The notes under the pieces are model-generated. The model worked only from the letters and a program-made list of their open reading frames with translations. It did not search any database and had not been told where the DNA came from. Of a stretch of 64,000 bases of DNA, positions 28,869 to 52,227 are shown piece by piece (within the stretch, counting starts at the first letter, position 1; every line of letters begins with the position of its first letter). A program made the position numbers and the translations under genes. Source of the DNA: a virus (lineage: Duplodnaviria > Caudoviricetes); the IMG/VR virus record IMGVR_UViG_3300046167_000724; one strand, given 5' to 3'.

Positions 28869-29192
28869 TTATGTAACTGGCTGGTTTGCAATAAGATGTA
28901 AGACCGTAGTCTCAAAATCTATCGATGACGTTTTTCCACCAATTGACCAAATATTAAGCTCTTCAACTGTATAACGCTCATCGTATGTTTTCCAATCATA
29001 GATTGTAAATGTTTCACCTTCAAAATCAAATACCCATTCTTTTTGAACCTTATCATCACCCGATGCTTCATCAAATACTGGCTTACCAAAAGTATTCTTA
29101 AGGTCCCAATAAGAAATTCCTGTCAATGAACCTACCTTGTAAGTTCCATGTATAAGGTCTAGTGCCTCTTCTGTATTTTTAATTACTTGCAT
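28869..29192 (-). CDS. Conserved hypothetical phage protein
   Basis: DDKVQKEW...FTIYDWK pattern. Confidence 0.7.
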   Translation of the reverse strand: MQVIKNTEEALDLIHGTYKVGSLTGISYWDLKNTFGKPVFDEASGDDKVQKEWVFDFEGETFTIYDWKTYDERYTVEELNIWSIGGKTSSIDFETTVLHLIANQPVT

Positions 29193-29203
29193 AATAAATT
29201 ATA

Positions 29204-29434
29204 TTATTTGTTTATCCATAAGTTATAAATATAGTCATAGCCAACTTCTAAAGAAGAAGCTAATTCAGTGAAACAACGTTCACGGACAATGCTGTCATCA
29301 ACACCAATGTATTTGTAGACATCATTACCTAAGTAAAGTTCATTCAAGAGACCTGCAAAGTGTGCGTTCTCGTTGATTTCTGGACCCAACTCGTCGGTTG
29401 GATACACATCACAATAAAAAGTTTGTAAATTCAT
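29204..29434 (-). CDS. Hypothetical early protein
   Basis: ORF after a class-1 repeat. Confidence 0.7.
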   Translation of the reverse strand: MNLQTFYCDVYPTDELGPEINENAHFAGLLNELYLGNDVYKYIGVDDSIVRERCFTELASSLEVGYDYIYNLWINK

Positions 29435-29456
29435 AATGTTTGTTTTAAGGGTTTCC

Positions 29457-29505
29457 CCGATTGATTACATAGTAAATATAGGCAAAATATACGACATAAA
29501 AAAAT
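29457..29505 (-). promoter_or_regulatory. Class-1 (early) promoter repeat
   Basis: Reverse complement reads ttttttatgtcg...ttttgcctatatttactatgtaatcaatcgg. Confidence 0.75.
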
Positions 29506-29524
29506 AAATGTGCAACTTTTTTGT

Positions 29525-29550
29525 AAAAAAAGAGCCCCGAAGGGCTCTTA
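29525..29550 (-). terminator. Intrinsic terminator (minus strand)
   Basis: A-run then gagccc-cgaa-gggctc. Confidence 0.7.
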
Positions 29551-29557
29551 AGTTACT

Positions 29558-30031
29558 TTACTTTGATAGTAACTCTACTATCTCCGTTAGACCTTGTTGT
29601 TCTGCAACGTACTTGATAGCCTTTAGTAGGTTAGCCAAGCGTAGGTCTTTATCACCACCTCTTTGAGTCACCCTGAAGTTGATACCTTCATAGTTTTTAC
29701 TCTCACTGATTCTTACGTGTTTGTAGTTACCACCGTGAAGTTCTTGCATCTTAACTGCAATTGCTTTCATAGTTTTGCGACTCCATAGCCTATCTACTAG
29801 CGTTTCAGCATATAGGTTATCGTGTTTAGTGTTTTTAGGGAGGTGAAGCTCCACTATTACACAGTCAGGCTTTACAGCCACACCGAGGTTAAGTGATACG
29901 TGAGGCTTTCTCACGCTAGTGGATAGGGCACACGCATGGTACTGACCTTTCCAGTTGATAGTGATACCCAAGTCACTTAGGTAAGCTGCACGCTCTGTGA
30001 GCTCAGGGTAGTTGTTCAAAACAGGTGCCAT
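29558..30031 (-). CDS. Hypothetical early protein
   Basis: 157-aa ORF between repeat and terminator. Confidence 0.7.
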   Translation of the reverse strand: MAPVLNNYPELTERAAYLSDLGITINWKGQYHACALSTSVRKPHVSLNLGVAVKPDCVIVELHLPKNTKHDNLYAETLVDRLWSRKTMKAIAVKMQELHGGNYKHVRISESKNYEGINFRVTQRGGDKDLRLANLLKAIKYVAEQQGLTEIVELLSK

Positions 30032-30096
30032 AGGCTTTCTTGTTTTTAGTTCCCCGGATTCGAGAAGATTGAGGTTCGCCGGGTCTTCCCCTCAAT

Positions 30097-30140
30097 CATT
30101 ACATAGTAAATATAGCAAAAAGATTTGACATAAAAAAATA
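30097..30140 (-). promoter_or_regulatory. Class-1 (early) promoter repeat
   Basis: attacatagtaaatatagcaaaa...gacataaaaaa. Confidence 0.7.
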
Positions 30141-30163
30141 AATGTCAAACTTTTTTAAAATAA

Positions 30164-30748
30164 TTAAGCCATCATTGCAATGGCTTTTTCACAATTCTTT
30201 TGAGTAGCCCCGAAACTCATTGCATGTCGCACTGCAGTTTCTAAGTCAACTTGACCAAAGACATAAGGACAATCTTCAGAAGTCATTTGACTCAACATGC
30301 GGTAAACATCTGGAAGAGTTGCATGCTTAGGACGGTCATTCACAAACAAGTACTTAACACCCATATCAATGTCATAAGTACCATTGTCACTACGGCGACC
30401 TTCTTTGATTTCATACATGTCAATCATACCATTGAAAGAGCCGTAAACGAACTGCTCACCAAAGCGATTAACATCTTGAATCATTTCTTTAGGCATTGGG
30501 TTACCTTTTTCGTCAGTTAAGTAAACATTCACAGAGTTACCCATTGAATAGCTATCAGAGCTAGTATAAACGGTAGCTTGTGGATAAGTCTTCTTAACAT
30601 ACTGCTTAATAATGTTAGCAGCGGCTGTTTGATTGATACGAAGAACAGGTTTTTCAAGTAGACCACCATTCCAGTTAGTGGTTTGAAGGTGTTTGTCTGA
30701 TACTTGGAAGGTAATGCCTTCGAGTTGGAAATTGATTTTTTTTGTCAT
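30164..30748 (-). CDS. LPD29-like (polyvalent-protein domain) early protein
   Basis: SSDSYSMGNSVNV...YGSFNGMIDMYE pattern. Confidence 0.5.
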   Translation of the reverse strand: MTKKINFQLEGITFQVSDKHLQTTNWNGGLLEKPVLRINQTAAANIIKQYVKKTYPQATVYTSSDSYSMGNSVNVYLTDEKGNPMPKEMIQDVNRFGEQFVYGSFNGMIDMYEIKEGRRSDNGTYDIDMGVKYLFVNDRPKHATLPDVYRMLSQMTSEDCPYVFGQVDLETAVRHAMSFGATQKNCEKAIAMMA

Positions 30749-30777
30749 AAAGCGTTTTTGTTTTAATGGGATAGACT

Positions 30778-30849
30778 CCCGATTGATTACATAGTAAATA
30801 TAGGCAAAATAAACGACATAAAAAAACTTTTAGTCAATTATTTTCAAAC
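30778..30849 (-). promoter_or_regulatory. Class-1 (early) promoter repeat, long form
   Basis: Full ~72-bp copy. Confidence 0.75.
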
Positions 30850-31179
30850 TAATTCAGTTTCTTTAATGGATTTGATGTGTTTGCAATCACCTCTACGGAA
30901 TTGACGAGCTGGACAGCTACAATCCCATTTATCATTACGTAAGGTTACTTTATAAAAGGCACCTTTACTACCTTCAACTTCCCAAGAATTGTCTTTACTC
31001 TCTACTTTGGGTTGAACTTGTTTAGGCGTAGGTTTGAATTTAAACTCAATTTGACTACGTGTTGTACCATTAGGCACTTCGTACCAACCTGGACACACAA
31101 AAGTCTTTCCATTAGTTTGAACTAAACCCCAACCAACTCGAGGTTCTTGTATATTACACGTTATCAAAGACATAATCAC
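30844..31179 (-). CDS. SWIM zinc-finger protein
   Basis: WDCSCP...CKH; true start may be 31173. Confidence 0.75.
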   Translation of the reverse strand: MIMSLITCNIQEPRVGWGLVQTNGKTFVCPGWYEVPNGTTRSQIEFKFKPTPKQVQPKVESKDNSWEVEGSKGAFYKVTLRNDKWDCSCPARQFRRGDCKHIKSIKETELV

Positions 31180-31642
31180 TAAATTGATTGGTTAAGTCAT
31201 TAAAGGGTAAACCTTCTTCAAGTGTCATTTGACGCAATCTCTTTGAATAAAGACGATTACAGTTTTCATTTAAGTTTTCTTGCACAAGAGACATATCTAA
31301 GATGATACAATACTCAGGTTGCATAGTTTCGTTATAGTCCCATTTGATAAATACCGCTTTATTAGCTGATTTAGTCTTGAGACCGCCATAAACATAATTA
31401 CGTGCAGTTGTACGAGTATGCTTGACTTCATACGTTTCACCTGTTACGGTGTTGCGTACGTCAAAGCCTTCAGTATTACCACCTAAGCATTCGTGTTCAT
31501 CACCTGTAAAATCGGTCATAAATCGAGTAAAGGCCAACTCACTAATTGCAGCCCAAGGGTTTTGATTAGTTGTACCTGTTACTTCTAAAAGCTTTTGCTC
31601 CAACTCTTGCTGAAGCAAAGCAATTTCATGTAAGTCTTCCAT
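31154..31642 (-). CDS. Putative PD-(D/E)XK endonuclease
   Basis: AISE...EGFDV...TYEVKH. Confidence 0.6.
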   Translation of the reverse strand: MEDLHEIALLQQELEQKLLEVTGTTNQNPWAAISELAFTRFMTDFTGDEHECLGGNTEGFDVRNTVTGETYEVKHTRTTARNYVYGGLKTKSANKAVFIKWDYNETMQPEYCIILDMSLVQENLNENCNRLYSKRLRQMTLEEGLPFNDLTNQFSDYVFDNV

Positions 31643-31926
31643 TATCCTAAACGCTTATATGTCTTGATAATTTCAAACTCATCGAATTCATCAACAAAGT
31701 TAATAGTATAGCCCATATTCTTAAGTGCAGTAAGCACCTCAGAAGCATCGCAGTCCTCTTCAAAATAAAAGAGACCTAACTTAGCATTGTAAAAGCTGTA
31801 CTGAGATTGCAAGGCTTTACAAGTTGCTACTTCGTTTACTAGATTCTTGTGGATTTGCACATAACCGTGAGACGGTGTGTGGTAATAACCCAAGGTAACT
31901 TCTTTAGTGATTGTTTGATAGTTCAT
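31642..31926 (-). CDS. Conserved hypothetical phage protein
   Basis: TPSHGY...YFEEDCD motif. Confidence 0.65.
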   Translation of the reverse strand: MNYQTITKEVTLGYYHTPSHGYVQIHKNLVNEVATCKALQSQYSFYNAKLGLFYFEEDCDASEVLTALKNMGYTINFVDEFDEFEIIKTYKRLG

Positions 31927-31937
31927 AATTCTTTATC

Positions 31938-31983
31938 ATTGATTACATAGTAAATATAGGCAAAATAAACGACATAAAAAAAT
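31938..31983 (-). promoter_or_regulatory. Class-1 (early) promoter repeat
   Basis: attgattacatagtaaatataggcaaaataaacgacataaaaaaa. Confidence 0.75.
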
Positions 31984-32018
31984 ATATTCCATCTTTTTTT
32001 AAATTTAATATATAATAT

Positions 32019-32774
32019 ATGTTAGCTAATAATTTTATAATATCAATAACTTCGGTTCCTTTTAGATTTAAAGATGAATTGGTTCAAGTTTTAAAAAGCT
32101 TAAGCGGAAATACATTAGGTATTAAAATTATTGTATCAATACCTAGGGTATACAGGAAGGGTTGGACGTATACTCAAGATGACTTATTAGAGTTATCTAA
32201 AATACCCGAAGTTGTTCTTAATATAATAGATGAGGATTATGGCCCCGCAACTAAACTTTTAGGTGGTATTGAATGGGTTAGAAATAATGGGCTAAATGTT
32301 ACAGGCATTATAACTATGGACGATGATATAATATTTCAAAATCCAGCAACTCAAATATTAAGTCTAGTCAAATTACATTTAGAACAACGAGAAAATGTAA
32401 TCACATTTCAAGGTCTTAAACTAATACACCCGCCATATTATTCAGGTAACGGGTTGCATGGTGTTAGAGAAGATTGGTGTCATGGTGTTGCTGGCTTTCT
32501 AGGTGTATTATACCCAAGTCATTTTTTTAAATCAAATGTTGTTTTTAATTTGTTTGAAGAACTTGACCCTAATTTCTATTCAGAAGATGATGCATATTTC
32601 GGTGCTGTTGCATCACGTTTAAATATTAAAATATGGTCATCTACTAATTTAAGTAAATGGTCTAGCATATCTAAAATATCCGCAGTAGATAAAATGTTAG
32701 AAGGTAAGCGACAAGTACGTGAATCTAAAATGTATAACGATCTCATATCTGCTGGCTTCTTTAAATTCTTATAA
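32019..32774 (+). CDS. Glycosyltransferase-like protein (GT-A, DxD)
   Basis: DYGPATKLLG, TMDDDII, DDAYF. Confidence 0.65.
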   Translation: MLANNFIISITSVPFRFKDELVQVLKSLSGNTLGIKIIVSIPRVYRKGWTYTQDDLLELSKIPEVVLNIIDEDYGPATKLLGGIEWVRNNGLNVTGIITMDDDIIFQNPATQILSLVKLHLEQRENVITFQGLKLIHPPYYSGNGLHGVREDWCHGVAGFLGVLYPSHFFKSNVVFNLFEELDPNFYSEDDAYFGAVASRLNIKIWSSTNLSKWSSISKISAVDKMLEGKRQVRESKMYNDLISAGFFKFL

Positions 32775-33335
32775 ATAATGCCCTATAGAAATACCAACAA
32801 ACTGAGTAGTACTATTAAGCTGAGCGTCATCTAACATGATATAGACATTCGCTTTCATATAGACATTATAGCTAATATGCTTCTTAAGTCTAAAGGAAGC
32901 AATGGCAGGAAAACTAGTATTTCTCTGCTCACTTGTACCAATGGCTAAACCACTTGATAAGTATAAATCAAACGGCTTAACTTTAAACTCACGAGCTAAT
33001 CCCATAAATACAAAGCTTACAGTAGGTGTCGGTTTATCAAACTCCCAATCACCTTCAAGACCTCTAAGCTGAACAATCCAATCTTGAGTAAACAACCAAT
33101 CGCTACCTGCAACAGGCTTTATACTTGCACTTAGACTACTAGCTATTAAACTGTAACCTTCCATGTTACTTTCAATCGGTATACCTACACCAACATCTAC
33201 CTGGCCAACCCAAGATTTATTAGGTTTAACCTTTGGTTTAGCTAAGTTAGTTTGAGTAAAGTTATAGCAATCGTCTTGACTAAATCCTTTAAATGGTAGA
33301 AGTACCACCAAGATTGTAATTAAAATATTCTTCAT
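32769..33335 (-). CDS. Secreted/outer-membrane beta-rich protein
   Basis: Signal peptide MKNILITILVVLLPFKGFS-QD; alternating beta pattern; aromatic C-terminus. Confidence 0.5.
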   Translation of the reverse strand: MKNILITILVVLLPFKGFSQDDCYNFTQTNLAKPKVKPNKSWVGQVDVGVGIPIESNMEGYSLIASSLSASIKPVAGSDWLFTQDWIVQLRGLEGDWEFDKPTPTVSFVFMGLAREFKVKPFDLYLSSGLAIGTSEQRNTSFPAIASFRLKKHISYNVYMKANVYIMLDDAQLNSTTQFVGISIGHYL

Positions 33336-33745
33336 TATCTTCTAATAAAATACAAGGTTCTTAACTGCTCGCCAACAATACCATATACCGTCTTATTCTC
33401 TACAACCAATGTATTAGGCCCTTGAGAAACAACATCCCACTCTTCATAAGATATAAACAAACTTGTATCTAAATATTGATAAGTATGCATATAACCATTA
33501 GAGTAGATAAATCCTATAATCTCTACAGGTTGTAAAGTACCATCTAGTATCGTATACACATTTACGCTATCAAAGTAAAATATAAGGTTATCAAATACCG
33601 TATCTGTTGTAAAGTTTAAACCAGGTAAGTAGTAGTCTTCAACAGATTCTAAACGGTTTAATTGCCATTCACCGTCTATTACAAACGGCTCTTCTTTATG
33701 GCATGTAAGAAGTAATAAAGGTAAGAGGTATAAGAGTCGTCGCAT
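33335..33745 (-). CDS. Lipoprotein, lipocalin-like
   Basis: LLLLTC lipobox-like; IDGEWQL GxW motif; LRTLYFIR end. Confidence 0.55.
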   Translation of the reverse strand: MRRLLYLLPLLLLTCHKEEPFVIDGEWQLNRLESVEDYYLPGLNFTTDTVFDNLIFYFDSVNVYTILDGTLQPVEIIGFIYSNGYMHTYQYLDTSLFISYEEWDVVSQGPNTLVVENKTVYGIVGEQLRTLYFIRR

Positions 33746-33749
33746 GCTA

Positions 33750-33779
33750 TTTATATGACCAGTTTCTACACTTGTTTCA
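33750..33779 (-). promoter_or_regulatory. Class-2 promoter candidate
   Basis: Reverse complement reads TGAAACA-N17-TATAAA. Confidence 0.55.
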
Positions 33780-34265
33780 CAAAAAAACCATTTTTCAATT
33801 ATTTCAGTTCCGCTTTCCAGAAACTATCCCCACAAGCCCATAAACACCATTTAAGAAACTAACACCCTCACGACTAACAACCAACCTAGATTACACCAAC
33901 CCTTCCACAAACACAATAATAATAATATAAGAGATAATAATAAGAATAATAAGAAGGATATAAGTAAGGATAACAATAAGAATACAAGTACACATATACA
34001 TGATACGAGTGTAAGAACAACTCTAAGTCTTAAGTATACAGGATATACACATTACATAAGTAACATAAGATATAAAGGATAAGCCCAACTCCATACCAAG
34101 CCCAGTAAGGGTTTAAAGAAAGCAACCGAACATCGTGAGGTATAAGGGTTAAGTTCCATGTTCATCCATGTTCATCCATGTTGCAGGGGCCGGGTTAAAC
34201 ACGAGGGCCAACTAACACACATTTCGCGGGGCGGTTTACCCCCAGCCACCAAGGGCCACTATCCC
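33780..34265. other. Non-coding, strand-biased spacer with ATAAG repeats
   Basis: No credible ORF; A/C-rich plus strand; ccatgttcat tandem near 34156. Confidence 0.6.
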
Positions 34266-34296
34266 AAAAAGAAGGGACCCCATTGCTGAGAGTCCC
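34265..34296 (-). terminator. Probable terminator (minus strand)
   Basis: A-run then agggac...gtccct. Confidence 0.5.
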
Positions 34297-34327
34297 TGAA
34301 GGGTAATCAATCCTTATGTTTGGTAGT

Positions 34328-35359
34328 TTAGAGTTCTACGCTATCTTTGGTGTCTTCTGTGACTTTGTCAAATCCGAATAGTCTGTCGAAAGCGGCGCCT
34401 TCGGTTTCCAGTTGTTTACGTTCTTCTTTGAGTAGTTCGTCGTTGGCTATATCTGTTTCGAATCGGGCTTCGTTAAATTGTATGCCTTCTTCAAATGAGA
34501 AGTAGAGTTTTTTGTTTACGTCACCTACACGGTTTTTTGAGAATTCTAGGAACCTACGGCCGTTCTCACCACCTTCCCAGTCTAGTTTCATCATTGAGGT
34601 GGTCATGTGTTTGAGTTTGTTTGAGCCTACGAACTGTCCTCCTTTAGAGAGTTGGAGTATTGTAACAAAGGCTGTGTGTGCTTGGGACTTGTTGTGTTGT
34701 GTCATTAGGTCTAGGAACCATTTTTCTGCTTTGCCTCGTGTCCAGCCTGTGTGTTCTTTAACGGTGTCGTTAACTTCGGTGTAGCTGTCGGTGAGTACTA
34801 CGTCGTATCCTTCTTCTAGAACTTTTTCTATTACTAGGTTGGCGTGGGATTCGTAGTTGTTCATGAAGAGGATGGGGAGTGTTGCCCAATTGGGGAATCG
34901 CTTAAGGTAGCGTGCCATATCCATCTCATTCATCTCTGCTGAAATAAAGAGTACTTTGTTACCGTTGGCTTGTAGGTGTGCAAGGTGGTCGAGTAGGATT
35001 GTGGTCTTACCAACCCCTGGGGCTCCGGCAGCCATGATGTTAGTTGCTGGAAGGATGCCACCGTCGTTTGATATAAGTTTATCAAAGATGGTATTGGCCT
35101 TCATAGGTACGAATAGGTCGGGGTTAATGTTAAGGTCCTCTAACTTGGTGAGGCTTACATTAATTTGAGGTGGTAGTGCATCTGATGTGGTAGACTTGAT
35201 CTTATGGTCAGACATACGGAAACCACGTGGAGGGCCTAGCCTTTCCTTTGGTGTTCCTTTACCGTCCCAATGCACAAAAGGCTTTGTGAACGTACCGATT
35301 AATTCAGGGCCATTGTTTACTGGGATGGCCTTCCCGTTTTCTACTTGATATACAAACAT
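34328..35359 (-). CDS. RadA/Sms-like RecA-fold ATPase
   Basis: GAPGVGKTT Walker A, VVLTDS Walker B, SKNRVG resembling RadA KNRFG; no Zn finger or Lon domain. Confidence 0.7.
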   Translation of the reverse strand: MFVYQVENGKAIPVNNGPELIGTFTKPFVHWDGKGTPKERLGPPRGFRMSDHKIKSTTSDALPPQINVSLTKLEDLNINPDLFVPMKANTIFDKLISNDGGILPATNIMAAGAPGVGKTTILLDHLAHLQANGNKVLFISAEMNEMDMARYLKRFPNWATLPILFMNNYESHANLVIEKVLEEGYDVVLTDSYTEVNDTVKEHTGWTRGKAEKWFLDLMTQHNKSQAHTAFVTILQLSKGGQFVGSNKLKHMTTSMMKLDWEGGENGRRFLEFSKNRVGDVNKKLYFSFEEGIQFNEARFETDIANDELLKEERKQLETEGAAFDRLFGFDKVTEDTKDSVEL

Positions 35360-35366
35360 AATTATT

Positions 35367-35440
35367 CCGATTGATTACTATGTAAATATAGGCAAAATAG
35401 TTGACATAAAAAAACTTTAGGTCAACTATTTTCAAACTAT
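35367..35440 (-). promoter_or_regulatory. Class-1 (early) promoter repeat, long form
   Basis: Full copy, TTACATAGTAA variant. Confidence 0.75.
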
Positions 35441-35845
35441 TTTACAGGGATAGGTCCGTCAGGAAGGGTGAAACTGTTTAAGTGCTCTTGGAAAACCTCA
35501 GGGCTCTCTTCAAACTCAAACTTGCTGAGGTCACCGTTGCCGATGATAGGAGCAAATCCGTAACGAGCCGCGCCGAACATGCCAACCTCATCGAATCCCA
35601 ATAGGGTATACATCTCACCGTCTTCAGTCTTCGCTACAAGCTCACAGCCGGCAGGAATACCACCGCGGTAGCCTTGCATATAGATAGGAAGGAACTCAAA
35701 GCCGATAAGGTCTGCTCGGACCCCATGCTTGCGCAGTGTCTTTTGGAAATTCACCAGGCATGCCCTTGAATGAGAATTCTTTACCGTTTTGTTTAGCAAT
35801 GAAGATAGCCTCGTTCATTAACTGAGTTGGAATTTGTACTTTCAT
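35437..35845 (-). pseudogene. Frameshifted early gene (one extra base near 35745) or assembly error
   Basis: ATG at 35845 (MKVQIPTQL...GEF) is one base out of frame with the downstream frame (QKTLRKHG...PVK); span 409 nt. Confidence 0.6.
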
Positions 35846-35867
35846 AAGTTGTTCTTTGTGGGCAGTG

Positions 35868-35941
35868 CCCGATTGATTACATAGTAAATATAGGCAAAAT
35901 AGTTGACATAAAAAAGTTTTTAGCCAACTATTTTCAAATTA
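35868..35941 (-). promoter_or_regulatory. Class-1 (early) promoter repeat, long form
   Basis: Full copy. Confidence 0.75.
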
Positions 35942-36327
35942 TTTTACTGCAACTGAATGTGCACCTAAACTACCTTTCCAAATTGGAGCGCCTTCATATA
36001 CACGTGAGGTCAACTTAAATTCAAAACGACGTGAGTGGCCAACTTCAGGATTCTCTTCAGCAATATCAATGATCTCGTATGCTTCAGCAACATATGTCGC
36101 AACCTTCTCACCATGTAAGATACCCGATACTGTTACAGGGTAAACCTTTTTCAAAGGCTTCTATTAATGCAGCCTCTTCTTCTTTATAGAAGTACCATGC
36201 CCGGGCAATACACCCTTTAAGGCTACGACCAGGTGAATTCACCTTTAGTGTTATAGCTACGATTGACACTAACGAAAATGTTAACACCTTCGTTAAACTT
36301 GTTTGGATTGTAAATAACTTTACTCAT
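35939..36327 (-). pseudogene. Frameshifted early gene (two extra bases) or assembly error
   Basis: MSKVIY...VNRSYNTKG / PGRSLKGCIARAW...FEKG / PVTVSGILHG...AVK lie in three successive frames; span 389 nt. Confidence 0.6.
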
Positions 36328-36348
36328 GATTATTTCTTTAGTAGGTTT

Positions 36349-36420
36349 CCCCGATTGATTACATATGTAATATAGGCAATTCCGGCGACATAAAAAAACT
36401 TTTAGGCAATTATTTTCAAA
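36349..36420 (-). promoter_or_regulatory. Class-1 promoter repeat, leftward member of the divergent pair
   Basis: Variant copy with TTACATATGTAA. Confidence 0.7.
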
Positions 36421-36490
36421 ATAAAATGCAAGTAAGTACCTTATATTATATTACAGAACTGAAAAAAGTTTCAAAAAAGTTTGCCTTTTA

Positions 36491-36540
36491 TTTTTTTATG
36501 TCAACTATTTTGCCTATATTTACTATGTAATCAATCGGGA
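36491..36540 (+). promoter_or_regulatory. Class-1 promoter repeat, rightward member of the divergent pair
   Basis: tttttttatgtcaactattttgcctatatttactatgtaatcaatcgg. Confidence 0.75.
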
Positions 36541-36565
36541 ATCACTCCCACTAAAAGAAAATCAT

Positions 36566-36883
36566 ATGACTAATAACGAACTTTGTGAACTGCTTGCCCA
36601 CGGAAACCTTCAAGAGGCTAAACCTATTATTGAAGACCGCAAGCAAATGCCTGAAAGTCGTCTTCTTATAATTCGTGAGATGTTAAGTGACTATCCACAT
36701 GTCTATATCGAACACGAACCAATGAGTGAAAGTAATTGGTACTACATATGGCGTAAAGAGAATATCAAAGGACCACACGATTGGAACCGTAGTGATTGCT
36801 TAATGCAGTTCTATTGGAAAGCTGGTAGCTATAACGCTGAAGGTGTTCACAATCTATACGACGAATGGGGCACAGCCCTTTAA
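36566..36883 (+). CDS. Hypothetical early protein
   Basis: ORF after repeat. Confidence 0.7.
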   Translation: MTNNELCELLAHGNLQEAKPIIEDRKQMPESRLLIIREMLSDYPHVYIEHEPMSESNWYYIWRKENIKGPHDWNRSDCLMQFYWKAGSYNAEGVHNLYDEWGTAL

Positions 36884-36960
36884 AATAATTTGAAAATAAA
36901 TGGCTAAAAACTTTTTTATGTCGTTTATTTTGCCTATATTTACTATGTAATCAATGGGGA
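36881..36960 (+). promoter_or_regulatory. Class-1 promoter repeat, long form
   Basis: Full ~80-bp copy. Confidence 0.75.
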
Positions 36961-36983
36961 TCACCCTGGAAATTAAAAATATT

Positions 36984-37199
36984 ATGAATAAAAGAAACCG
37001 TCATCCCAATTACGTCAATGGCTACGAAGAGAAGATTGGCTACTGGCTTTACAAGGTCAACCAAGCTGTTGAGCAAGGTAGTGCTGAGAATCTCGAGTAT
37101 GCTAACCAGCGTCTTGTGTACTTCTTACAACGCCAGGAGACCTGGAAGAAAGAGACTGGCAACTTAAATGAGTATAAAATCAAAACTATCTACGGGTAA
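36984..37199 (+). CDS. Hypothetical early protein
   Basis: Start moved to MNKRNRHP downstream of the repeat. Confidence 0.65.
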   Translation: MNKRNRHPNYVNGYEEKIGYWLYKVNQAVEQGSAENLEYANQRLVYFLQRQETWKKETGNLNEYKIKTIYG

Positions 37200-37438
37200 T
37201 GAACAAAGAATTATTAGCAATCGAAGAGGAGCTTAACCAAATCGTGGTTAACCTAAGGCTAGAGAGCCTATACGACGAACCAGTTGGTGGATACTTACTT
37301 AATGCAGGTAGCCCAGCAGCGGACTTCTTATTAGAGTCTACTCCAAGTGAGCGTGAATTCATCCTTCATAAATTGGCACCTGAGCTAATAGTAGAAGATG
37401 TATATGAAGGTAATCATATAATTCTAAATCTTAAATAA
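37199..37438 (+). CDS. Hypothetical early protein
   Basis: TAATG coupling. Confidence 0.65.
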   Translation: MNKELLAIEEELNQIVVNLRLESLYDEPVGGYLLNAGSPAADFLLESTPSEREFILHKLAPELIVEDVYEGNHIILNLK

Positions 37439-37441
37439 ATT

Positions 37442-37759
37442 ATGGCATTATTAAAAAATAACAAAGGAGAGTACAACTACCAGTTTAACTGGGTTGATGA
37501 GAACTACAGCGTATGTGGATTCAACAGCGTATGGGCTACTAACAAGCGTGAGGCCCTTAAGAAGGCTAAAGCTATGGAGACCGAAGCACATTGGGCACTA
37601 TACGACGGTAACAAGTATGTAACGGTACCTGAGGAGGTTATAGGCGAGGGCCATTGCTTCCGTATGAAAGGTATGTATGTTCAAGTGGAATCTATGTATA
37701 AGGCCACTGCAGAGCAACGTGACCGTATGGACGAGATTGGCTGGATGATGACGAACTAA
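37442..37759 (+). CDS. Hypothetical early protein
   Basis: 105-aa ORF. Confidence 0.7.
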   Translation: MALLKNNKGEYNYQFNWVDENYSVCGFNSVWATNKREALKKAKAMETEAHWALYDGNKYVTVPEEVIGEGHCFRMKGMYVQVESMYKATAEQRDRMDEIGWMMTN

Positions 37760-37774
37760 AATTGTTAGTAACTA

Positions 37775-37827
37775 TTAGGCTAAAAGCTTTTTTATATCAA
37801 CTATTTTGCCTATATTTATAGTATAAT
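37775..37827 (+). promoter_or_regulatory. Class-1 promoter repeat
   Basis: ggctaaaagctttttttatatc...ttttgcctatatttatagt. Confidence 0.7.
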
Positions 37828-37842
37828 AAAAGAGAAAGCAAT

Positions 37843-38151
37843 ATGAACATTAAAGAACAAATCGAAAACTGGATTCCAGTAGCCCAGGCTAAATGTAACA
37901 GCTATTACTCAGAACAGTGGCAATCACAAGCTCCCGAGCTCACTATCAAATATGGACGTAAGTATGCCAAGATTATGGATGATGGCTCAACATGGGGCTT
38001 CATAGCCTTAACAGATGATCCTAGTAAAGGACAAGTTACAGGGGACCTTTTAAAGCCGGCTTCGTGGGCAACACCCACAAGACACTCGAGAGGTAACATA
38101 TTAAACGGTACAGCAGTGTACGATCAGTACGGACCAGCTTACTTAAAATAA
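37843..38151 (+). CDS. Conserved hypothetical phage protein
   Basis: GRKYAKI...WGFI...GDLLKPASWATP...RGNI motif. Confidence 0.75.
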   Translation: MNIKEQIENWIPVAQAKCNSYYSEQWQSQAPELTIKYGRKYAKIMDDGSTWGFIALTDDPSKGQVTGDLLKPASWATPTRHSRGNILNGTAVYDQYGPAYLK

Positions 38152-38220
38152 TTTGAAAATAAATGACTAAAAGCTTTTTTATGTCAATTATTTTGCCTAT
38201 ATTTACTATGTAATCAATCG
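38146..38220 (+). promoter_or_regulatory. Class-1 promoter repeat, long form
   Basis: Full copy. Confidence 0.75.
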
Positions 38221-38228
38221 TAATAAAT

Positions 38229-38465
38229 ATGAACTATATCAAATCATTCATCAATCGTAACCAGGGTCTCACAACCTTAATGGCTACCTTAATCATTTTA
38301 GCAACTGGGTGTATTCTATTGCCTATTGCAGTAACCCTAGCATGTAAGGCTCTCTTATACATGATTAACCAACCAGCTAACTCATTATACATTATAGGTG
38401 CCTACCTATTTGGTATATTAAGTAATGAGCTTGCAGGTGCGCTTGATAAAAAAGTTTCAAAATAA
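38229..38465 (+). CDS. Small membrane protein (2 TM)
   Basis: Two hydrophobic stretches. Confidence 0.65.
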   Translation: MNYIKSFINRNQGLTTLMATLIILATGCILLPIAVTLACKALLYMINQPANSLYIIGAYLFGILSNELAGALDKKVSK

Positions 38466-38526
38466 TTGACTAAAAGTTTTTTTATGTCAATCTTTTTGCC
38501 TATATTTACTATGTAATCAATCGGGG
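38459..38526 (+). promoter_or_regulatory. Class-1 promoter repeat
   Basis: Full copy. Confidence 0.75.
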
Positions 38527-38551
38527 AAACCCACTAAACAAATAATCGCTT

Positions 38552-38968
38552 ATGGCAACTATCAAAGAATTCAACAAAAGCAACCTCAACAGCCTTCGTC
38601 AAGACATGAACGCAGCACTTGCTAAACTAGAAAAGCAGTACGGTATTCAAATCAATGTAGGTAATGCAAGATTTAGTGACAATGAAGTTACTTTCAAAAC
38701 TAAATGTAACACTATCGGTGAAGGTGGAAAAGCCCAAACTAAAGAAGCCCAAAACTGGAAGCTATATGCAGAGCTTAATGGTGTAAGCCAATTCTCTATC
38801 GGTGACCGTATCGCCATCCAAGGTAAAATCTTCTCTATCGAAGGCTGGAACACACGTGCTAAGAAAGCCCCAGTAATGATTAAAGAAGTTGGCTCAAACA
38901 AAACCTTTAAATGTAGCGTACGCACTATAGCAGGTAAACTCCCTATGGTCAAAGAAACCATTAAATAA
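38552..38968 (+). CDS. Conserved hypothetical phage protein
   Basis: GIQINVGNARFSDNEVTFK...GWNTRAKKAPV. Confidence 0.75.
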   Translation: MATIKEFNKSNLNSLRQDMNAALAKLEKQYGIQINVGNARFSDNEVTFKTKCNTIGEGGKAQTKEAQNWKLYAELNGVSQFSIGDRIAIQGKIFSIEGWNTRAKKAPVMIKEVGSNKTFKCSVRTIAGKLPMVKETIK

Positions 38969-38982
38969 ACAACCCCCACAGA

Positions 38983-39011
38983 AAGCCCTATATAAAGCCT
39001 ATATAGGGCTT
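38983..39011. repeat. Perfect 12-bp inverted repeat
   Basis: aagccctatata-aagcc-tatatagggctt. Confidence 0.7.
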
Positions 39012-39048
39012 CCCATAAACAACCAATAATTAAAGCAATATATAAACC

Positions 39049-39204
39049 ATGAGTAAAACATTTGTATTCACACTAGAAAGAGACAACGGGTATACTTATA
39101 CGTATGAAGGGACATTCGAATCCCTAGCCCGACACATCGCAGCGCAAGATAGCCCAATTAAGGTTAACGGCGATAAGACAGCTTTCAACACTAAAGAGGC
39201 TTAA
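39049..39204 (+). CDS. 51-aa hypothetical protein (not in ORF track)
   Basis: MSKTFVFTLERDNGYTYTYEG... Confidence 0.5.
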   Translation: MSKTFVFTLERDNGYTYTYEGTFESLARHIAAQDSPIKVNGDKTAFNTKEA

Positions 39205-47515: not shown

Positions 47516-48405
47516 TGAGTAAGGGTCCGTTTTCATATAGCGGAAATAAAACCAGGATTTACAATGCGTATCTTAAACCTATTATGCGAAAGTACAATAG
47601 GATTCATGAACCCTTTGTAGGTTCTGGTGTTTGTATGTACAATGCTAATAATGGTGGAATGTCAACTGATGTTGACCCCGCCGTTGTTGCAATGCACAAC
47701 GCGCTTTTAGACAGCGAATTACCCAATAGAATGCAAGCCTGTTACAATAAGTTTTTTGCAACAGGTCATACTAAAGAATCGTACAACACCTTGCGAGAAG
47801 CGTTTAATACTGACTGGATGCTTAATGGTATCACACCTAAAAATGTACACCAGCTTTATGTCTTAGCCCAAATCTCTTTCAATTCGCTTATAAGGTTTAG
47901 TAAAAATGGTTTCAATGTACCGTTTGGTGAAAAGCCATTAGATATAGAGCGTATCAAATTGCACGTTACAATATACAAGACTAAAGATATTCAAGTTACA
48001 CTATCAGGATATAATACTATAGACCTTAATAAGGTTGACAAAGATAGAGATATTATTTATCTAGACCCGCCTTATATTGCAAGTAAGTTTCAATATGGTG
48101 GTTGGGGTAAAAAAGATGAAAAGGAACTCTTGGATTTTATAACTAAATTAGACCAGCTTGGTTATAACTTTATTTTATCAAACACGTTTTCACATAAGGG
48201 TGAGATTAACACAGCACTTATAGACTGGGCAAAAGACTACAATGCATACTTGATTGACATGAGCTACAACGCGTGGTCTGCTCGTGTTACTTCTGTAGAG
48301 CGAGAAGACCAAACCGTTGAAGTACTTATTACAAACTTACAAGACGGTTTTAATGATCTTGCAAACGCGAATGCAAATAAATTATCAACAACTGAACTTT
48401 TTTAG
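47515..48405 (+). CDS. Dam-like N6-adenine DNA methyltransferase
   Basis: PFSYSGNK, EPFVGSG, FNVPFG, YLDPPY, EVLITN. Confidence 0.9.
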   Translation: MSKGPFSYSGNKTRIYNAYLKPIMRKYNRIHEPFVGSGVCMYNANNGGMSTDVDPAVVAMHNALLDSELPNRMQACYNKFFATGHTKESYNTLREAFNTDWMLNGITPKNVHQLYVLAQISFNSLIRFSKNGFNVPFGEKPLDIERIKLHVTIYKTKDIQVTLSGYNTIDLNKVDKDRDIIYLDPPYIASKFQYGGWGKKDEKELLDFITKLDQLGYNFILSNTFSHKGEINTALIDWAKDYNAYLIDMSYNAWSARVTSVEREDQTVEVLITNLQDGFNDLANANANKLSTTELF

Positions 48406-48410
48406 TTTTA

Positions 48411-48446
48411 TATTTTTTTATGTCAAATCTTTTTTGTATATTTACA
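48411..48446 (+). promoter_or_regulatory. Class-1 promoter repeat (short variant)
   Basis: ttttttatgtc...tttttgtatatttac. Confidence 0.6.
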
Positions 48447-48448
48447 AC

Positions 48449-48592
48449 ATGTCAGAAGAACTAATGGTAATGCAGGTACAGTACGACGATGCTGTCAATG
48501 CTGGAAATACTAAAGAAGCTAAAGAGCTTCTTAAAATTATTAATGGTATGCAACACACACATACTAAAGGTAAATATAAATACAATGATTAA
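48449..48592 (+). CDS. 47-aa hypothetical protein
   Basis: Start moved to MSEELMV after the repeat. Confidence 0.55.
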   Translation: MSEELMVMQVQYDDAVNAGNTKEAKELLKIINGMQHTHTKGKYKYND

Positions 48593-48995
48593 AATAACGG
48601 GTAAACGTACACATAAAACTGCTATTAACAAAAAGGTTAAAGCGATTGCAGATGCACTTGGTATTACATGTGATGTTAACGTTTATTTTATGGACCATAC
48701 GTCACCTGATAAGTATGGGTTTGCCGCTGAAATAATGGGTAGTCAATACGTTTGTATTTTTAAAGACTGTCCAGAAGATAAACTCGGTGACGTTATTTCA
48801 CATGAAATGGTACATATATTACAAACTTTAAGAGGTGATCTTAAACATGATTATATGAATCGTACTTTTTATTGGAAGGGTGAAAAATGGGACAATGAAA
48901 GATGTGAGTCTGTTAACTATTATGATAGACCTTGGGAAGCTGAAGCAAAAAAACTTGAAAAAAAGTTAGCCGAAAACTTTTTTATGTCAAATTAA
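48585..48995 (+). CDS. Zinc metallopeptidase-like protein
   Basis: Start moved to MIKITG; HEMVH; YYDRPWEAEA. Confidence 0.7.
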   Translation: MIKITGKRTHKTAINKKVKAIADALGITCDVNVYFMDHTSPDKYGFAAEIMGSQYVCIFKDCPEDKLGDVISHEMVHILQTLRGDLKHDYMNRTFYWKGEKWDNERCESVNYYDRPWEAEAKKLEKKLAENFFMSN

Positions 48996-49020
48996 TTGCC
49001 TATATTTACATAGTAATCAG
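48965..49020 (+). promoter_or_regulatory. Class-1 promoter repeat
   Basis: Full copy overlapping the end of the upstream ORF. Confidence 0.75.
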
Positions 49021-49054
49021 TTGAGAATATATAATTAAAATAAATCAAAAGACA

Positions 49055-49294
49055 ATGGCAAAGAAAAAGATTTCAGACGCAGACTTAATCGACGCACTAG
49101 AAGGACTAGATACGACGTATGACCGTCTAAGTACAGATGGTCAAAAGACAATGGATGCATTTTTTACAAAAGCAGAAAAGTCAATTAATCAAAGAGACTT
49201 AGATAAGTTTATTAAAGACTTAGAGTATGATGTACAACGCATGAATTCAGACGGTGTATATTACTATGAAATTCTTAAAAACGCAAAGTTATAA
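49055..49294 (+). CDS. Hypothetical early protein
   Basis: ORF after repeat. Confidence 0.65.
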   Translation: MAKKKISDADLIDALEGLDTTYDRLSTDGQKTMDAFFTKAEKSINQRDLDKFIKDLEYDVQRMNSDGVYYYEILKNAKL

Positions 49295-49298
49295 TATT

Positions 49299-49318
49299 AG
49301 GACCTTAGGGTCCTTTTA
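49299..49318 (+). terminator. Intrinsic terminator
   Basis: aggacc-ttag-ggtcct-ttt. Confidence 0.6.
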
Positions 49319-49326
49319 TTATTTTG

Positions 49327-49396
49327 AAAATAATTTGAAAATAATTGGCTAAAAGTTTTTTTATGTCGTAAACTTTGCCTATATTTATAGTATAAC
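49327..49396 (+). promoter_or_regulatory. Class-1 promoter repeat, long form
   Basis: Full copy. Confidence 0.75.
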
Positions 49397-49435
49397 AATG
49401 AGACAATGCTGTCTCTCTTAATTTAATTAACAAAC

Positions 49436-50569
49436 ATGGTAACATTATCAGACAACGCAATCCAATCGCGCAAGTTGGAAACATTAAACGCACAAGCACT
49501 ACGCAGAACAGTAGCAGCTCGTGAAATTGAAGTTATTGACGAGAAGACAATCTTCTACAATGGCTCTCAAATCAGAATTACTAGTGAGGCTTTTAAATCA
49601 CTAATGAAAATGACGGGAATGAGTCAAACATTCATTAAGAAGTTTGAACAACTCTTCAACCCTAAAGCTAAGGCGCAATTCATTAATACAATGAAAAACG
49701 CAATGGCTTCTAACGCAGGTAGTATGCCAAACATTACAATGGTACTTAATCCTGTTAACAAAGTAATTGTTGCATTCACAAAAGATGCTTCAGAACTTAT
49801 TTCTAACTCAAACTTTGTTGAGAATGCAGAACGTATTCTTAATGGTGGTAACTTTGGTGTTACAAACTGGACGACAGACCCAACTACGGGTATTGTAACT
49901 CTTAACGCCATTAAAGAAGGTGCAACATTCTCAGTTGCAGGTGATGAGAAAGATGTATTTACTGCGGGTATTACAATGAAGAACTCACCTATTACTGGAT
50001 TTCAAGTTTCACCTTACGTAAATCGTCTTTGGTGTACTAATGGTCTTACTACCGCACTCGCACAAGACAAGTACAATATGACAAACCTAAGTGAAAAATC
50101 GCTTACTCAATTCAACGAGTACATTCAAGGACTCACACGTCGCAACTTTGTGCCTGCTGAATTTAATGAATTAGTAAACAAAGCACGTAAAACACCGGCT
50201 TCTTTAAATGAGCTTAATCGTGCAACTAACGCAATTAAAAGTGCAGGTGCTGGTGATAGATCTGGACAGTGGATACCTCTTCACGAAAACCTACTTGAAT
50301 ACTCACGTGCAGGTATTGATACTAAAGATTTCAATAATGCAGAACTTAAGAATGCAGAATCTGACCAATCGGTTTGGAGTGTTGTAAATTCAATGACTCA
50401 CTTTGCGTCACATGGTGAAGACTTAGTTGATGGCTTTGAAAGTCACAAAGGTACTGACCTTATGGTTAGAGCTGGAAACTTATTAGGTCGTGCATGGGAC
50501 TTAGGTAATCGTGTTGCGTCACCTTTCAAAGGTTTGAATTCATACCAACATGGTGAAGTACTTAATTAA
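49436..50569 (+). CDS. DUF932-like early protein
   Basis: RLWCTNG motif; SVWSVVNSMTHFASH C-terminal helix. Confidence 0.55.
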   Translation: MVTLSDNAIQSRKLETLNAQALRRTVAAREIEVIDEKTIFYNGSQIRITSEAFKSLMKMTGMSQTFIKKFEQLFNPKAKAQFINTMKNAMASNAGSMPNITMVLNPVNKVIVAFTKDASELISNSNFVENAERILNGGNFGVTNWTTDPTTGIVTLNAIKEGATFSVAGDEKDVFTAGITMKNSPITGFQVSPYVNRLWCTNGLTTALAQDKYNMTNLSEKSLTQFNEYIQGLTRRNFVPAEFNELVNKARKTPASLNELNRATNAIKSAGAGDRSGQWIPLHENLLEYSRAGIDTKDFNNAELKNAESDQSVWSVVNSMTHFASHGEDLVDGFESHKGTDLMVRAGNLLGRAWDLGNRVASPFKGLNSYQHGEVLN

Positions 50570-50593
50570 TATAGTGCTATCATAATATAATAT

Positions 50594-50622
50594 AAGGGGT
50601 GTGCGGAAGTATACCCCTTTTT
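50594..50622 (+). terminator. Intrinsic terminator
   Basis: aaggggtgt-loop-atacccctttt. Confidence 0.7.
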
Positions 50623-50625
50623 ATT

Positions 50626-50690
50626 TTAAAATAATTGGCTAAAAGTTTTTTTATGTCGTTTATTTTGCCTATATTTACATAGTAATCAAA
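50626..50690 (+). promoter_or_regulatory. Class-1 promoter repeat
   Basis: Full copy. Confidence 0.75.
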
Positions 50691-50718
50691 TGGAAGTATT
50701 AACCTTAAATTTTATATT

Positions 50719-50952
50719 ATGCCTATTACTTATTTAGACCGTAAACCCTTTTTCAACGGAATGCAAATCGACGACATCGAAATCGATGGAGTAGACACTC
50801 GTGACTATCCTGATTTTTGCGATGCTTACATTAACAACTTTTGGCTTGTTGATGGCGATGAGGTTCGTGAAGCTACTGAGGCTGAACTCGATGATATTAA
50901 TGATAACGAACAAGACTTCGTTTACGAACAAGTCTGGGACTCTTTATTCTAA
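50719..50952 (+). CDS. Conserved acidic hypothetical phage protein
   Basis: IEIDGVDTRDYPDFCDAYI...EAELD. Confidence 0.75.
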   Translation: MPITYLDRKPFFNGMQIDDIEIDGVDTRDYPDFCDAYINNFWLVDGDEVREATEAELDDINDNEQDFVYEQVWDSLF

Positions 50953-51104
50953 TGGCTAAAAAGAAACCAAATAAAGTTGACGGTTATAGTGAACGTCATT
51001 TAAGTCAACTTATTCGTCGGCGCATGATTCAAAAAGATCATGGAGATGACAATAAGTATTCGCGTAAAGATAAACATAAAAAAGATTATGGCAAAGAAGA
51101 GTAA
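50952..51104 (+). CDS. 50-aa basic protein (not in ORF track)
   Basis: MAKKKPNKVDG...YSRKDKHKKDY; TAATG coupling. Confidence 0.6.
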   Translation: MAKKKPNKVDGYSERHLSQLIRRRMIQKDHGDDNKYSRKDKHKKDYGKEE

Positions 51105-51282
51105 AAGTGTAAAGGATGCTGTTTGTGCACGTTGTATAGGTAGCTTCAAGTTTAAAGAGCTTAATCGCGTTTATATACAAATGCATAGGCATGACCCTAA
51201 TAGTGGTTATTATGGTGTTTATGTGTGTGATAAATGTGAACCTAAGTTTGAATTAGATAGACGCGAACCAACACAGGAATAA
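51088..51282 (+). CDS. Small CxxC...CxxC zinc-ribbon protein
   Basis: CARC...CDKC; start moved to MAKKSKS. Confidence 0.6.
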   Translation: MAKKSKSVKDAVCARCIGSFKFKELNRVYIQMHRHDPNSGYYGVYVCDKCEPKFELDRREPTQE

Positions 51283-51283
51283 T

Positions 51284-51487
51284 ATGCCACATAAGAAAAA
51301 GCGTACAACCAGTGTTGAAGTATTTATACACGAGGGTCAATCTTATACAACAATACACAAAGACGATAATTCAGCTTGGATTATAGAATACGATATTAAA
51401 AAAAGATTTGCAAGTGGTGGCGTAAAAAAAGTAGACAAAAGTTTTTTATTGTCAAAAAAAATCACTATATTAGCTAGTAATACTTAA
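51284..51487 (+). CDS. Hypothetical protein
   Basis: 67-aa ORF. Confidence 0.5.
   Translation: MPHKKKRTTSVEVFIHEGQSYTTIHKDDNSAWIIEYDIKKRFASGGVKKVDKSFLLSKKITILASNT
51437..51481 (+). promoter_or_regulatory. Degenerate class-1 promoter repeat
   Basis: aaaagttttttattgtc...ctatattagctagtaat. Confidence 0.45.
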
Positions 51488-51495
51488 TAACAGAT

Positions 51496-51957
51496 ATGAA
51501 ACAAACTATTTATATTGACCTTGACGGGGTCGTTGTTGATATTGAAAGATATATCAATGAAACATTTAGCCCAGATTATATTAAAAAATATGGCATTGGT
51601 ACTATAATCGATATGCATCCTCAAATATTCTATGATGCAAAACCTATGCCAGGTGCAATCGCTGCATTTCGTGAACTTGCTGACAAGCATGATGTTTATA
51701 TTCTATCAACTGCACCTTGGGATAATCCAGAATCTTGGAAAGCAAAGCGTATTTGGGTTGAAAAGCATTTGGGCGATTCAGCATACAAAAGATTAATACT
51801 ATCACATAATAAAGGTTTACTTAGAGGTGACTTCTTAGTTGATGACCGTATTAAAAATGGTGTCGCAGAATTTGAAGGAACTCATATTCACTTTGGTACA
51901 CATGACATTCCAAACTGGGATAGCGTTTTAGAACTATTTAAAATGATTCAAGAGTAA
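51496..51957 (+). CDS. 5'(3')-deoxyribonucleotidase (NT5C-like HAD)
   Basis: YIDLDGVVVD, ILSTAPW, KGLLRGDFLVDD. Confidence 0.9.
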   Translation: MKQTIYIDLDGVVVDIERYINETFSPDYIKKYGIGTIIDMHPQIFYDAKPMPGAIAAFRELADKHDVYILSTAPWDNPESWKAKRIWVEKHLGDSAYKRLILSHNKGLLRGDFLVDDRIKNGVAEFEGTHIHFGTHDIPNWDSVLELFKMIQE

Positions 51958-52215: not shown

Positions 52216-52227
52216 AAAAACAAGCAC

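Follow-up and report, generated by a model that had tools for sequence, protein, structure and literature searches.

Several T4-type phages, namely the pairs RB49/phi1, T4/PST and KVP40/nt-1, carry genetic elements known as promoter-early stem-loops (PeSLs) in the hyperplastic regions of their genomes (Arbiol et al., 2010, PMC2839356; Comeau et al., 2014, PMC4122927). A PeSL is a strong early promoter that occurs repeatedly and combines an AT-rich upstream part with a stem-loop; these elements have been associated with (i) insertions; (ii) deletions; (iii) replacements; and (iv) displacements, and mini-circles have been shown by inverse polymerase chain reaction (PMC2839356, PMC4122927). A second point of reference is provided by the Bacteroidota, whose mRNAs have A-rich leaders without Shine-Dalgarno sites, and whose promoters are characterized by TTTG at -33 and TAnnTTTG, refined as TAHHTTTG, at -7 (PMC6847099, PMC2483708). 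Here, we describe a repeat of about 76 bp that fronts about twenty small genes in a 64,000-nucleotide stretch of DNA (hereafter, the window) from an uncultured marine virus of the Caudoviricetes (IMG/VR record IMGVR_UViG_3300046167_000724), many of them in a divergent array between positions 28,869 and 39,204. In our judgment, it is fairly probable that this repeat is a shared early-class promoter unit which doubles as a recombination patch, that is to say, that it would follow the PeSL principle.

The recurrence of the repeat in the window is far from what chance would produce. A 31-nt core is present in nine copies at no more than three mismatches, five of them exact, and the 40-nt upstream half in six copies at the same tolerance, the expectation being 0 for both (100 shuffles in the case of the core). 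A looser scan together with a profile search, in which the profile was built from the repeat copies themselves and the copies were indexed by their TTGCC anchor, resulted in 19 copies plus one degenerate copy. Twelve of them form the array, seven on the minus strand and five on the plus strand, in divergent orientation and within 10 kb (Table 1); the two innermost copies stand back to back, 131 bp apart, with the turning point at ~36445. These are the counts of the original prediction, which had placed the divergence at about 36450 and had also stated that upstream open reading frames (ORFs) often end inside the repeat, as they do with the C-terminal residues VK (35939 and 35437), SK (38465), EK (14434) and FFMSN (48995). 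Two of its details had to be amended: (i) from the eight outlying copies that it had listed, seven were found, while the one near 51437 is degenerate and falls below the profile threshold; and (ii) the spacer between ATGTC and TTGCC, given as N5, has 7 nt, which correspond to N5 plus TT.

In order to define the anatomy of the repeat, metagenomes were scanned with a 23-base pattern, and the 43 marine contigs so obtained were pooled with the window and the viral contigs. The pooled set holds 161 copies across 45 marine contigs, 129 of which are unique and in register and were used for information content; all fractions of 129 given below refer to them, and positions are numbered so that the first T of TATATTTA is -12. 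In the 5' to 3' direction, the following parts can be differentiated: (i) an A-tract at -54 to -49, where an UP element would sit; (ii) a T-run followed by ATGTC, 11 nt in total, near-invariant at -35 to -25; (iii) the 7-nt spacer, of low information; (iv) TTGCC plus TATATTTA, near-invariant at -17 to -5, with TATATTTA itself at -12 to -5; and (v) GTAAT.AAT, conserved over the expected start, little conservation being observed beyond +9. The two near-invariant blocks score 1.7-2.0 bits and conservation spans about 45 positions in all. Since a free spacer lies between two invariant blocks, the pattern points to position-specific selection, as at a protein-binding site, and argues against a blanket homogenization of the copies.

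The placement of the repeat is equally regular, as a co-oriented ORF starting with ATG begins 20-130 nt downstream in 135 of the 161 copies (median box-to-ATG distance: 39 nt). Given this fixed position and orientation before ORFs, together with the bipartite conservation, the repeat looks like a promoter, as had been proposed from the window, and it is from these features that we infer promoter activity. The putative -7 box matches the Bacteroidota consensus at seven of its eight positions, the remaining one being A at -5 (1.8 bits). The leaders are A-rich, frequently contain TAAA(A) and are devoid of a Shine-Dalgarno site. Neither the extended motif nor the 23-nt core occurs in 185,579 prokaryote species genomes, so these yielded no host promoter copy and no clue to the host. 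Scans of the whole window for tRNAs and Rfam families returned nothing, hence the core is not explained by any known RNA family.

Two types of inverted symmetry accompany the core. On the one hand, a GGG-loop-CCC hairpin follows it in 49 of the 129 copies (1.9% of random windows have one), with at least 15 different loops and with C-G, A-T or T-A as the fourth pair. This excess over random, the variety of loops and the covariation of the fourth pair indicate a 5' leader hairpin that is selected but optional. On the other hand, the invariant core contains a TTAC-N3-GTAA dyad, with arms of 4 nt, over the predicted start (e.g., window 36940-36950). The centre of this 11-mer reads TAT in 58 and ATA in 42 of the 129 copies, so that both orientations are represented, and its arms co-vary to TTAT..ATAA in 14 copies; the dyad may be the site of a dimeric protein, or it may be due to chance. 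Convincing intrinsic terminators just upstream of the repeat are scarce, as they were found for only three of the 12 array copies (one of them being the hairpin at 29530-29549, just upstream of the copy with anchor 29485) and, by a crude test, for ~4 of the 129. Two further candidate features of the core were dropped: a start-stop mini-ORF (ATG-TAA), at the place of which 42 of the 129 copies have ATAG, and a second -7-like box made of the spacer plus TTG, the spacer being poorly conserved.

As regards the phage itself, two IMG/VR contigs of 72 and 125 kb (G001 and G002, respectively) are 85-94% identical to the window from ~33.6-34.2 kb rightwards. Their CheckV completeness values (23% and 41%) suggest a phage genome of roughly 300 kb. 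The larger contig, ~90% identical to the window, holds a major capsid gene of the Gp23 family (PF07068, E 2.7e-45). Furthermore, the T4 late consensus TATAAATA stands directly before the window ORFs that start at 3938, 24792 and 61278, and also near 57324, in all cases a few bases 5' of plus-strand start codons (sites at 3908-3938, 24776, 61257 and 57304, respectively), which suggests that late transcription in this lineage is of the gp55 type. Capsid gene and late consensus taken together indicate that the phage is T4-related, in agreement with the comparison to T4-type phages drawn beforehand, and that the repeat represents a promoter class distinct from the late one. A megablast of 28-40 kb against phage GenBank records gave no match, and a protein search among viral contigs found no relatives of the ORF at 26342-27595.

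The host is probably a member of the Bacteroidota. A Shine-Dalgarno-like core precedes only three of 51 genes, A is present at -3 in 30 of the 51, sigma-70-type promoter sites are not enriched (33 found, 34 expected), and the nearest cellular clusters of a ClpC-like protein encoded to the right of the array are mostly from Bacteroidota. The few Shine-Dalgarno cores, the lack of sigma-70 enrichment and the ClpC neighbours fit with such a host, which they do not prove.

For the comparison of gene order, ORFs were called in all the contigs, their proteins clustered and maps drawn, the relatives being short-read metagenome contigs. The original prediction would have fallen with a gene order fixed across relatives, and this is not what was found: by sequence comparison, cassettes have been gained, lost, exchanged for diverged alleles and transferred from one arm to the other. 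For instance, G001 and G002 hold an extra cassette, a diverged allele of ORF 30164-30748, exactly at the window's copy 35897, and the alignments on either side share the 76-nt repeat. L061 and L068 have exchanged the sides of the two genes that follow the divergent promoters at the centre, while the central spacer and the upstream halves of the promoters have not moved; all four junction repeats are chimeric, with the upstream half of one copy and the leader of another. In L041, L067, L073 and L036, many cassettes are on the opposite arm, always inverted with the arm. A slot at 31984-32782 is also variable, as it is reduced to ~30 bp in L040 and holds two other small genes in L039, L062 and L065. 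Across relatives, a gene family can have up to five different neighbours; by contrast, the flanking blocks at 41.8-49 kb are collinear.

Pairwise comparison of the copies locates the switch points more closely. In those pairs of copies that have only the upstream context in common, the upstream half of the repeat is 86% identical (background: 49%), whereas in those that only share the downstream gene it is the leader that is alike (85% versus 37%); the 7-nt spacer segregates with either side. The upstream half thus follows the upstream gene, the leader follows the downstream gene and the spacer goes with either one, which places the switch points within the conserved blocks. Junctions usually lie inside the repeat, with some events elsewhere. 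Mosaicism is also evident from the proteins: (i) between the window and G002, the identity of neighbouring cassettes ranges from 99% to 49%; (ii) in the 30164 family, lineages that are 47-72% alike in their other cassettes share an allele class with 90-97% identity; and (iii) the right arm of L061 is 97-99% like that of G002, while its central genes are closest to those of L068. Separate samples share the same arrangements (L039/L062/L065, L041/L067/L073, L032/L034/L068 and G001/G002).

Public sequencing runs were covered in the form of assembled contigs, which break at the repeats and reveal neither transcription starts nor excised circles. Among public DNA contigs, twelve joints were listed, most of them at repeat copies, such as 35395 to 35903 or, on opposite strands, 30795 to 38455; their shorter side has only 23-42 nt within repeated sequence, so they are ambiguous and were not counted as recombinant junctions or circles. 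In one study, contigs from RNA libraries match parts of several cassettes with a likeness of 90-95% and show neither transcription units nor timing.

According to the explanation that we favour, the promoter unit would be composed of an A-tract in the position of an UP element, the -35/-25 block, the free 7-nt spacer, a Bacteroidota-like -7 box (TATATTTA), the start region, often a 5' hairpin, and an A-rich leader. The most likely scenario is that the host RNA polymerase, together with the primary sigma factor, reads it soon after infection; both this early timing and the identity of the polymerase and of the sigma factor are inferred. The small genes, singly or in short groups, would then make up separate transcription units, which would fire outwards from the central point. 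As the copies are near-identical over 30-45 nt and occur in both orientations, they would also serve as homology patches for the general recombination system of the phage. Crossovers inside the repeat, either within one genome or between co-infecting relatives, could insert, delete, replace or flip cassettes, and after any such crossover every gene would stay behind a working promoter. Under this explanation, the repeats would cause the exchanges rather than tolerate them.

Several observations weigh against this explanation, and alternatives can be built on some of them. Regarding the promoter class, the -7 box has A at -5, where the promoters of F. johnsoniae have a nearly invariant G (PMC6847099), and no TTTG is found at the usual -33 spacing (19-21 nt) from the box. 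The block centred near -30 may actually be an activator box, in which case the class would be middle and not early. In T4, MotA and AsiA redirect the host polymerase. Applied to the window, this means that the T-run/ATGTC block would be the box of a phage activator in a 'PmSL'-like element, and that the genes behind it would not be immediate-early. The 11-nt near-invariant block does lie where the T4 MotA box sits, the missing -33 TTTG and the deviation at -5 from the host consensus (PMC6847099) would be accounted for, and middle-promoter PeSL-like elements have been described in phage nt-1 (PMC4122927); however, the block is unlike the MotA box TGCTT, and small ORFans in a divergent block are typical of early regions. 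A search for MotA (PF09158) and AsiA (PF09010) gave no match in the two relatives, which are at most 41% complete, nor in the control genomes, and is therefore uninformative. On balance, we regard a middle class as distinctly unlikely. The length of the conserved sequence (~45 positions, far beyond typical host promoters) and the absence of the motif from the 185,579 prokaryote species genomes could also be read as the mark of a promoter served by an RNA polymerase or sigma factor of the phage's own, of the kind known from phiKZ-like, N4-like and crAss-like phages. Nevertheless, this is a T4-related phage with the T4 late-promoter motif, and T4-type phages rely on the host polymerase throughout. 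Moreover, the annotation of the window ORFs, which is not exhaustive, contains no polymerase gene, and T4 early promoters are long as well (PMC2839356); we therefore give this alternative hardly any weight.

Regarding recombination, not all the events respect the repeat: four relatives lack the promoter-plus-ORF unit at 29552-30154 (copy 30119 and ORF 29558-30031), their junction being located between two terminators; five relatives lack ORF 36954-37199, the loss extending from where the repeat ends up to the following start codon; and several boundaries without a repeat also vary. There are ~2.1 alternative neighbours per boundary at repeats versus ~0.9 elsewhere, figures that come from a small sample of lineages which are not independent; transcription-unit borders tolerate rearrangement better in any case, and enrichment at repeats is no proof of causation. 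Besides, assemblers can mis-join strains at repeats, an artefact against which the recurrence of arrangements across samples argues, without excluding it. All this is compatible with the repeat being a promoter only, the mosaic order resulting from illegitimate or homologous exchange anywhere, from selection for intact promoter-gene units and, in part, from assembly chimeras; the short-read origin of all the relatives and the public-contig joints, with sides of 23-42 nt in repeated sequence, can be cited to the same effect. But junctions are commonly within the conserved blocks with no foreign sequence left, the junction repeats are chimeric with a spacer that segregates with either side, cassettes that change arm are always inverted along with it, and separate samples have the same arrangements, in view of which we deem this alternative rather unlikely, although not negligible. 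Finally, the array had been described as integron-like, and the exchange might be attributed to a dedicated recombinase acting on a core site inside the repeat, such as the TTAC-N3-GTAA dyad, whose location in the invariant core, two-way centre and compensatory arm change could be seen as the traces of such a site. Yet no integrase or recombinase family was detected among the scanned ORFs of 28.3-48.4 kb, that is, in or beside the array, nor was any attC- or attI-like site found; crossovers take place on both sides of the spacer and not at one point; the arms fall short of those of known recombinase sites; and each cassette comes with a promoter of its own, which is not the case in integrons. 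A site-specific system is, in consequence, the least probable of the explanations here considered, and the integron-like label does not hold.

Alongside the favoured explanation, that of a promoter unit which doubles as a recombination patch, a more speculative one deserves mention: the repeat might be more than a passive promoter and homology patch if the dyad were the site of a dedicated dimeric protein, either a regulator that works as a class-wide off-switch or a nuclease or recombination helper that starts the exchange. The RadA-like ATPase of the array and the nearby DprA-like protein would be possible partners of such a protein. We consider this proposal doubtful; in the event of such an active exchange, the array would be a programmed gene-shuffling device in phages of Bacteroidota.

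The proteins encoded by the cassettes are ORFans with no confident family match. Only hints below the threshold were obtained, namely LPD29 for ORF 30164-30748, a HicB-like PHROG for ORF 38552-38968 and DUF7717 for ORF 37843-38151; the anti-host and anti-defence role that had been attributed to this cargo is thus without backing, the LPD29 hint being all that could be adduced. The RadA-like ATPase had also been noticed beforehand. Its RecA-fold domain is nearest to RadA/Sms (TIGR00416, 48 bits versus a cut-off of 403; PDB RadA chains, E 6e-07), but the match is confined to residues about 90-292 of 343, both the N-terminal zinc finger and the C-terminal Lon-like domain of RadA are lacking, and no tie to the shuffling was apparent. 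The genes at 35437-35845 and 35939-36330 are each split into two frames in the window, while they are single ORFs of 128-148 amino acids in the relatives; 1-nt deletions at 35718/35720, 36138 and 36231/36232 set public DNA contigs apart from the window. Both splits are probably indel errors of the window assembly, or else real frameshifts.

Table 1. Repeat copies, cassette genes and neighbouring features of the window (positions of the whole stretch; copies are designated by their TTGCC anchor; aa, amino acids).
Feature	Position	Strand	Remarks
Outlying variant copy, anchor 11734	11687..11762	+	
Outlying variant copy, anchor 14465	14418..14493	+	fronts ORF 14499-14996
Left-arm cargo	28869..33745	-	small genes of unknown function, including one opposite-strand ORF, 32019-32774
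Repeat copy, anchor 29485	29457..29532	-	fronts ORF 29204-29434
Repeat copy, anchor 30119	30091..30166	-	diverged core; fronts ORF 29558-30031
Repeat copy, anchor 30807	30779..30854	-	fronts ORF 30164-30748
Repeat copy, anchor 31963	31935..32010	-	fronts three-gene unit 31642-31926, 31154-31642, 30844-31179
Variable slot	31984-32782		holds opposite-strand 251-aa ORF 32019-32774, no known family
RadA-like ATPase, 343 aa	34328..35359	-	RecA-fold ATPase domain nearest RadA/Sms; conserved among relatives
Repeat copy, anchor 35395	35367..35442	-	fronts RadA-like ATPase gene
Repeat copy, anchor 35897	35869..35944	-	fronts gene 35437-35845, split in window
Innermost minus-strand copy, anchor 36379	36351..36426	-	fronts gene 'u1', 35939-36330, split in window
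Innermost plus-strand copy, anchor 36510	36463..36538	+	fronts ORF 36566-36883
Right-arm cargo	36566..39204	+	eight small ORFs of 51-138 aa, unknown function
Repeat copy, anchor 36930	36883..36958	+	fronts ORF 36954/36984-37199
Variant copy, anchor 37806	37759..37834	+	TTAT..ATAA form; fronts ORF 37843-38151
Repeat copy, anchor 38193	38146..38221	+	fronts ORF 38229-38465
Repeat copy, anchor 38496	38449..38524	+	fronts ORFs 38552-38968 and 39049-39204
Endonuclease-like gene	40974-41378		right of array
DprA-like recombination mediator	42019-42687		right of array
ClpC-like ATPase	43202-45211		right of array
Thymidylate synthase	45245-46087		right of array
ClpP-like protease	46442-47107		right of array
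Five copies, anchors 48432, 48996, 49375, 50665 and 52193, plus degenerate copy near 51437	48385..52221	+	each fronts a plus-strand gene

Other features of the array and its surroundings can be briefly described. Between 33746 and 34327, after the terminator of the ATPase gene, there is an ORF-free stretch of 580 bp whose minus strand is rich in G+T and contains pyrimidine-rich runs as well as a short CATGGATGAA repeat in tandem. In L039, L040 and L073 the stretch is conserved at 70-79%, and the contigs of both IMG/VR relatives end inside it (window equivalents 33627 and 34202); a site of replication or packaging is conceivable, as is a point at which assemblies break. Directly after ORF 38552-38968, a long palindrome with a stem of ~20 bp (38975-39019) could act as a two-way terminator. 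An unrelated A-rich direct repeat of 93 nt (40427-40519 and 40548-40640; 78% identity, 121-bp period) sits in the 39.2-41 kb stretch, which is variable among relatives and has no copy of the main repeat. Among the several larger genes to the right of the array, the phage-borne ClpC/ClpP pair and DprA are, to our knowledge, unusual for T4-like phages.

If the favoured explanation is right, the idea of reiterated early promoters as recombination joints would apply not only to T4-type phages of Proteobacteria but also to a marine lineage of jumbo phages which probably infects Bacteroidota, with their quite different promoters and translation signals. The arrangement would then reflect a strategy common to T4-like genomes instead of a peculiarity of sigma-70 promoters. 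From a practical point of view, the ~130 natural variants of a predicted strong phage promoter could guide promoter design for marine Flavobacteriia. Likewise, the pool of roughly 40 small gene families with fast turnover is a place in which to seek functions of host takeover and counter-defence, none of which is evident here.

When the array is compared with the known systems, its likeness to integron arrays is limited to the presence of small, exchangeable, single-gene cassettes parted by a recurring element; unlike in integrons, the cassettes carry their own promoters, are found in two orientations, and their exchange looks like general homologous recombination. With the primary-sigma promoters of Bacteroidota, the repeat has in common T-12, A-11, T-8, T-7 and T-6 and AT-rich stretches upstream of the box, and its leaders share with theirs the TAAA(A), the frequent A at -3 and the absence of a Shine-Dalgarno site. 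It differs from their consensus in that (i) A takes the place of G at -5 in almost all of the 129 copies; (ii) there is no TTTG at a spacing of 19-21 nt; and (iii) its 11-nt invariant block and its conserved start region have no counterpart there.

With respect to PeSLs, the differences are those of a distinct transcriptional setting and layout. The repeat is not sigma-70-like, since it has a variant of the Bacteroidota-style -7 box and no -35 hexamer, and its genes lack a Shine-Dalgarno site. Its stem-loop is downstream, in the 5' leader, while that of PeSLs is an upstream terminator, here present in only three of the 12 array copies. The repeat forms a two-armed divergent array in which cassettes change arm by inversion and, whereas mini-circles are known for PeSLs, it is known from sequence comparison. 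In the remaining traits both systems coincide: a T4-related phage; numerous, almost identical units of a putative early promoter, AT-rich in their upstream part, which precede small ORFans of a hyperplastic region; stem-loops, here with a G-run and a C-run, as part of the cassette; and insertions, deletions, replacements and displacements between relatives at or in the units. The analogy with PeSLs drawn in the original prediction is therefore an apt one, given the insertion, deletion, replacement and arm swap of cassettes at the repeats. The original interpretation is supported in part: a PeSL-type shuffling of promoter cassettes stands, with the same working as far as sequence comparison can show, but no support was obtained for an integron-like nature, for anti-defence cargo or for a part of the ATPase in the shuffling.

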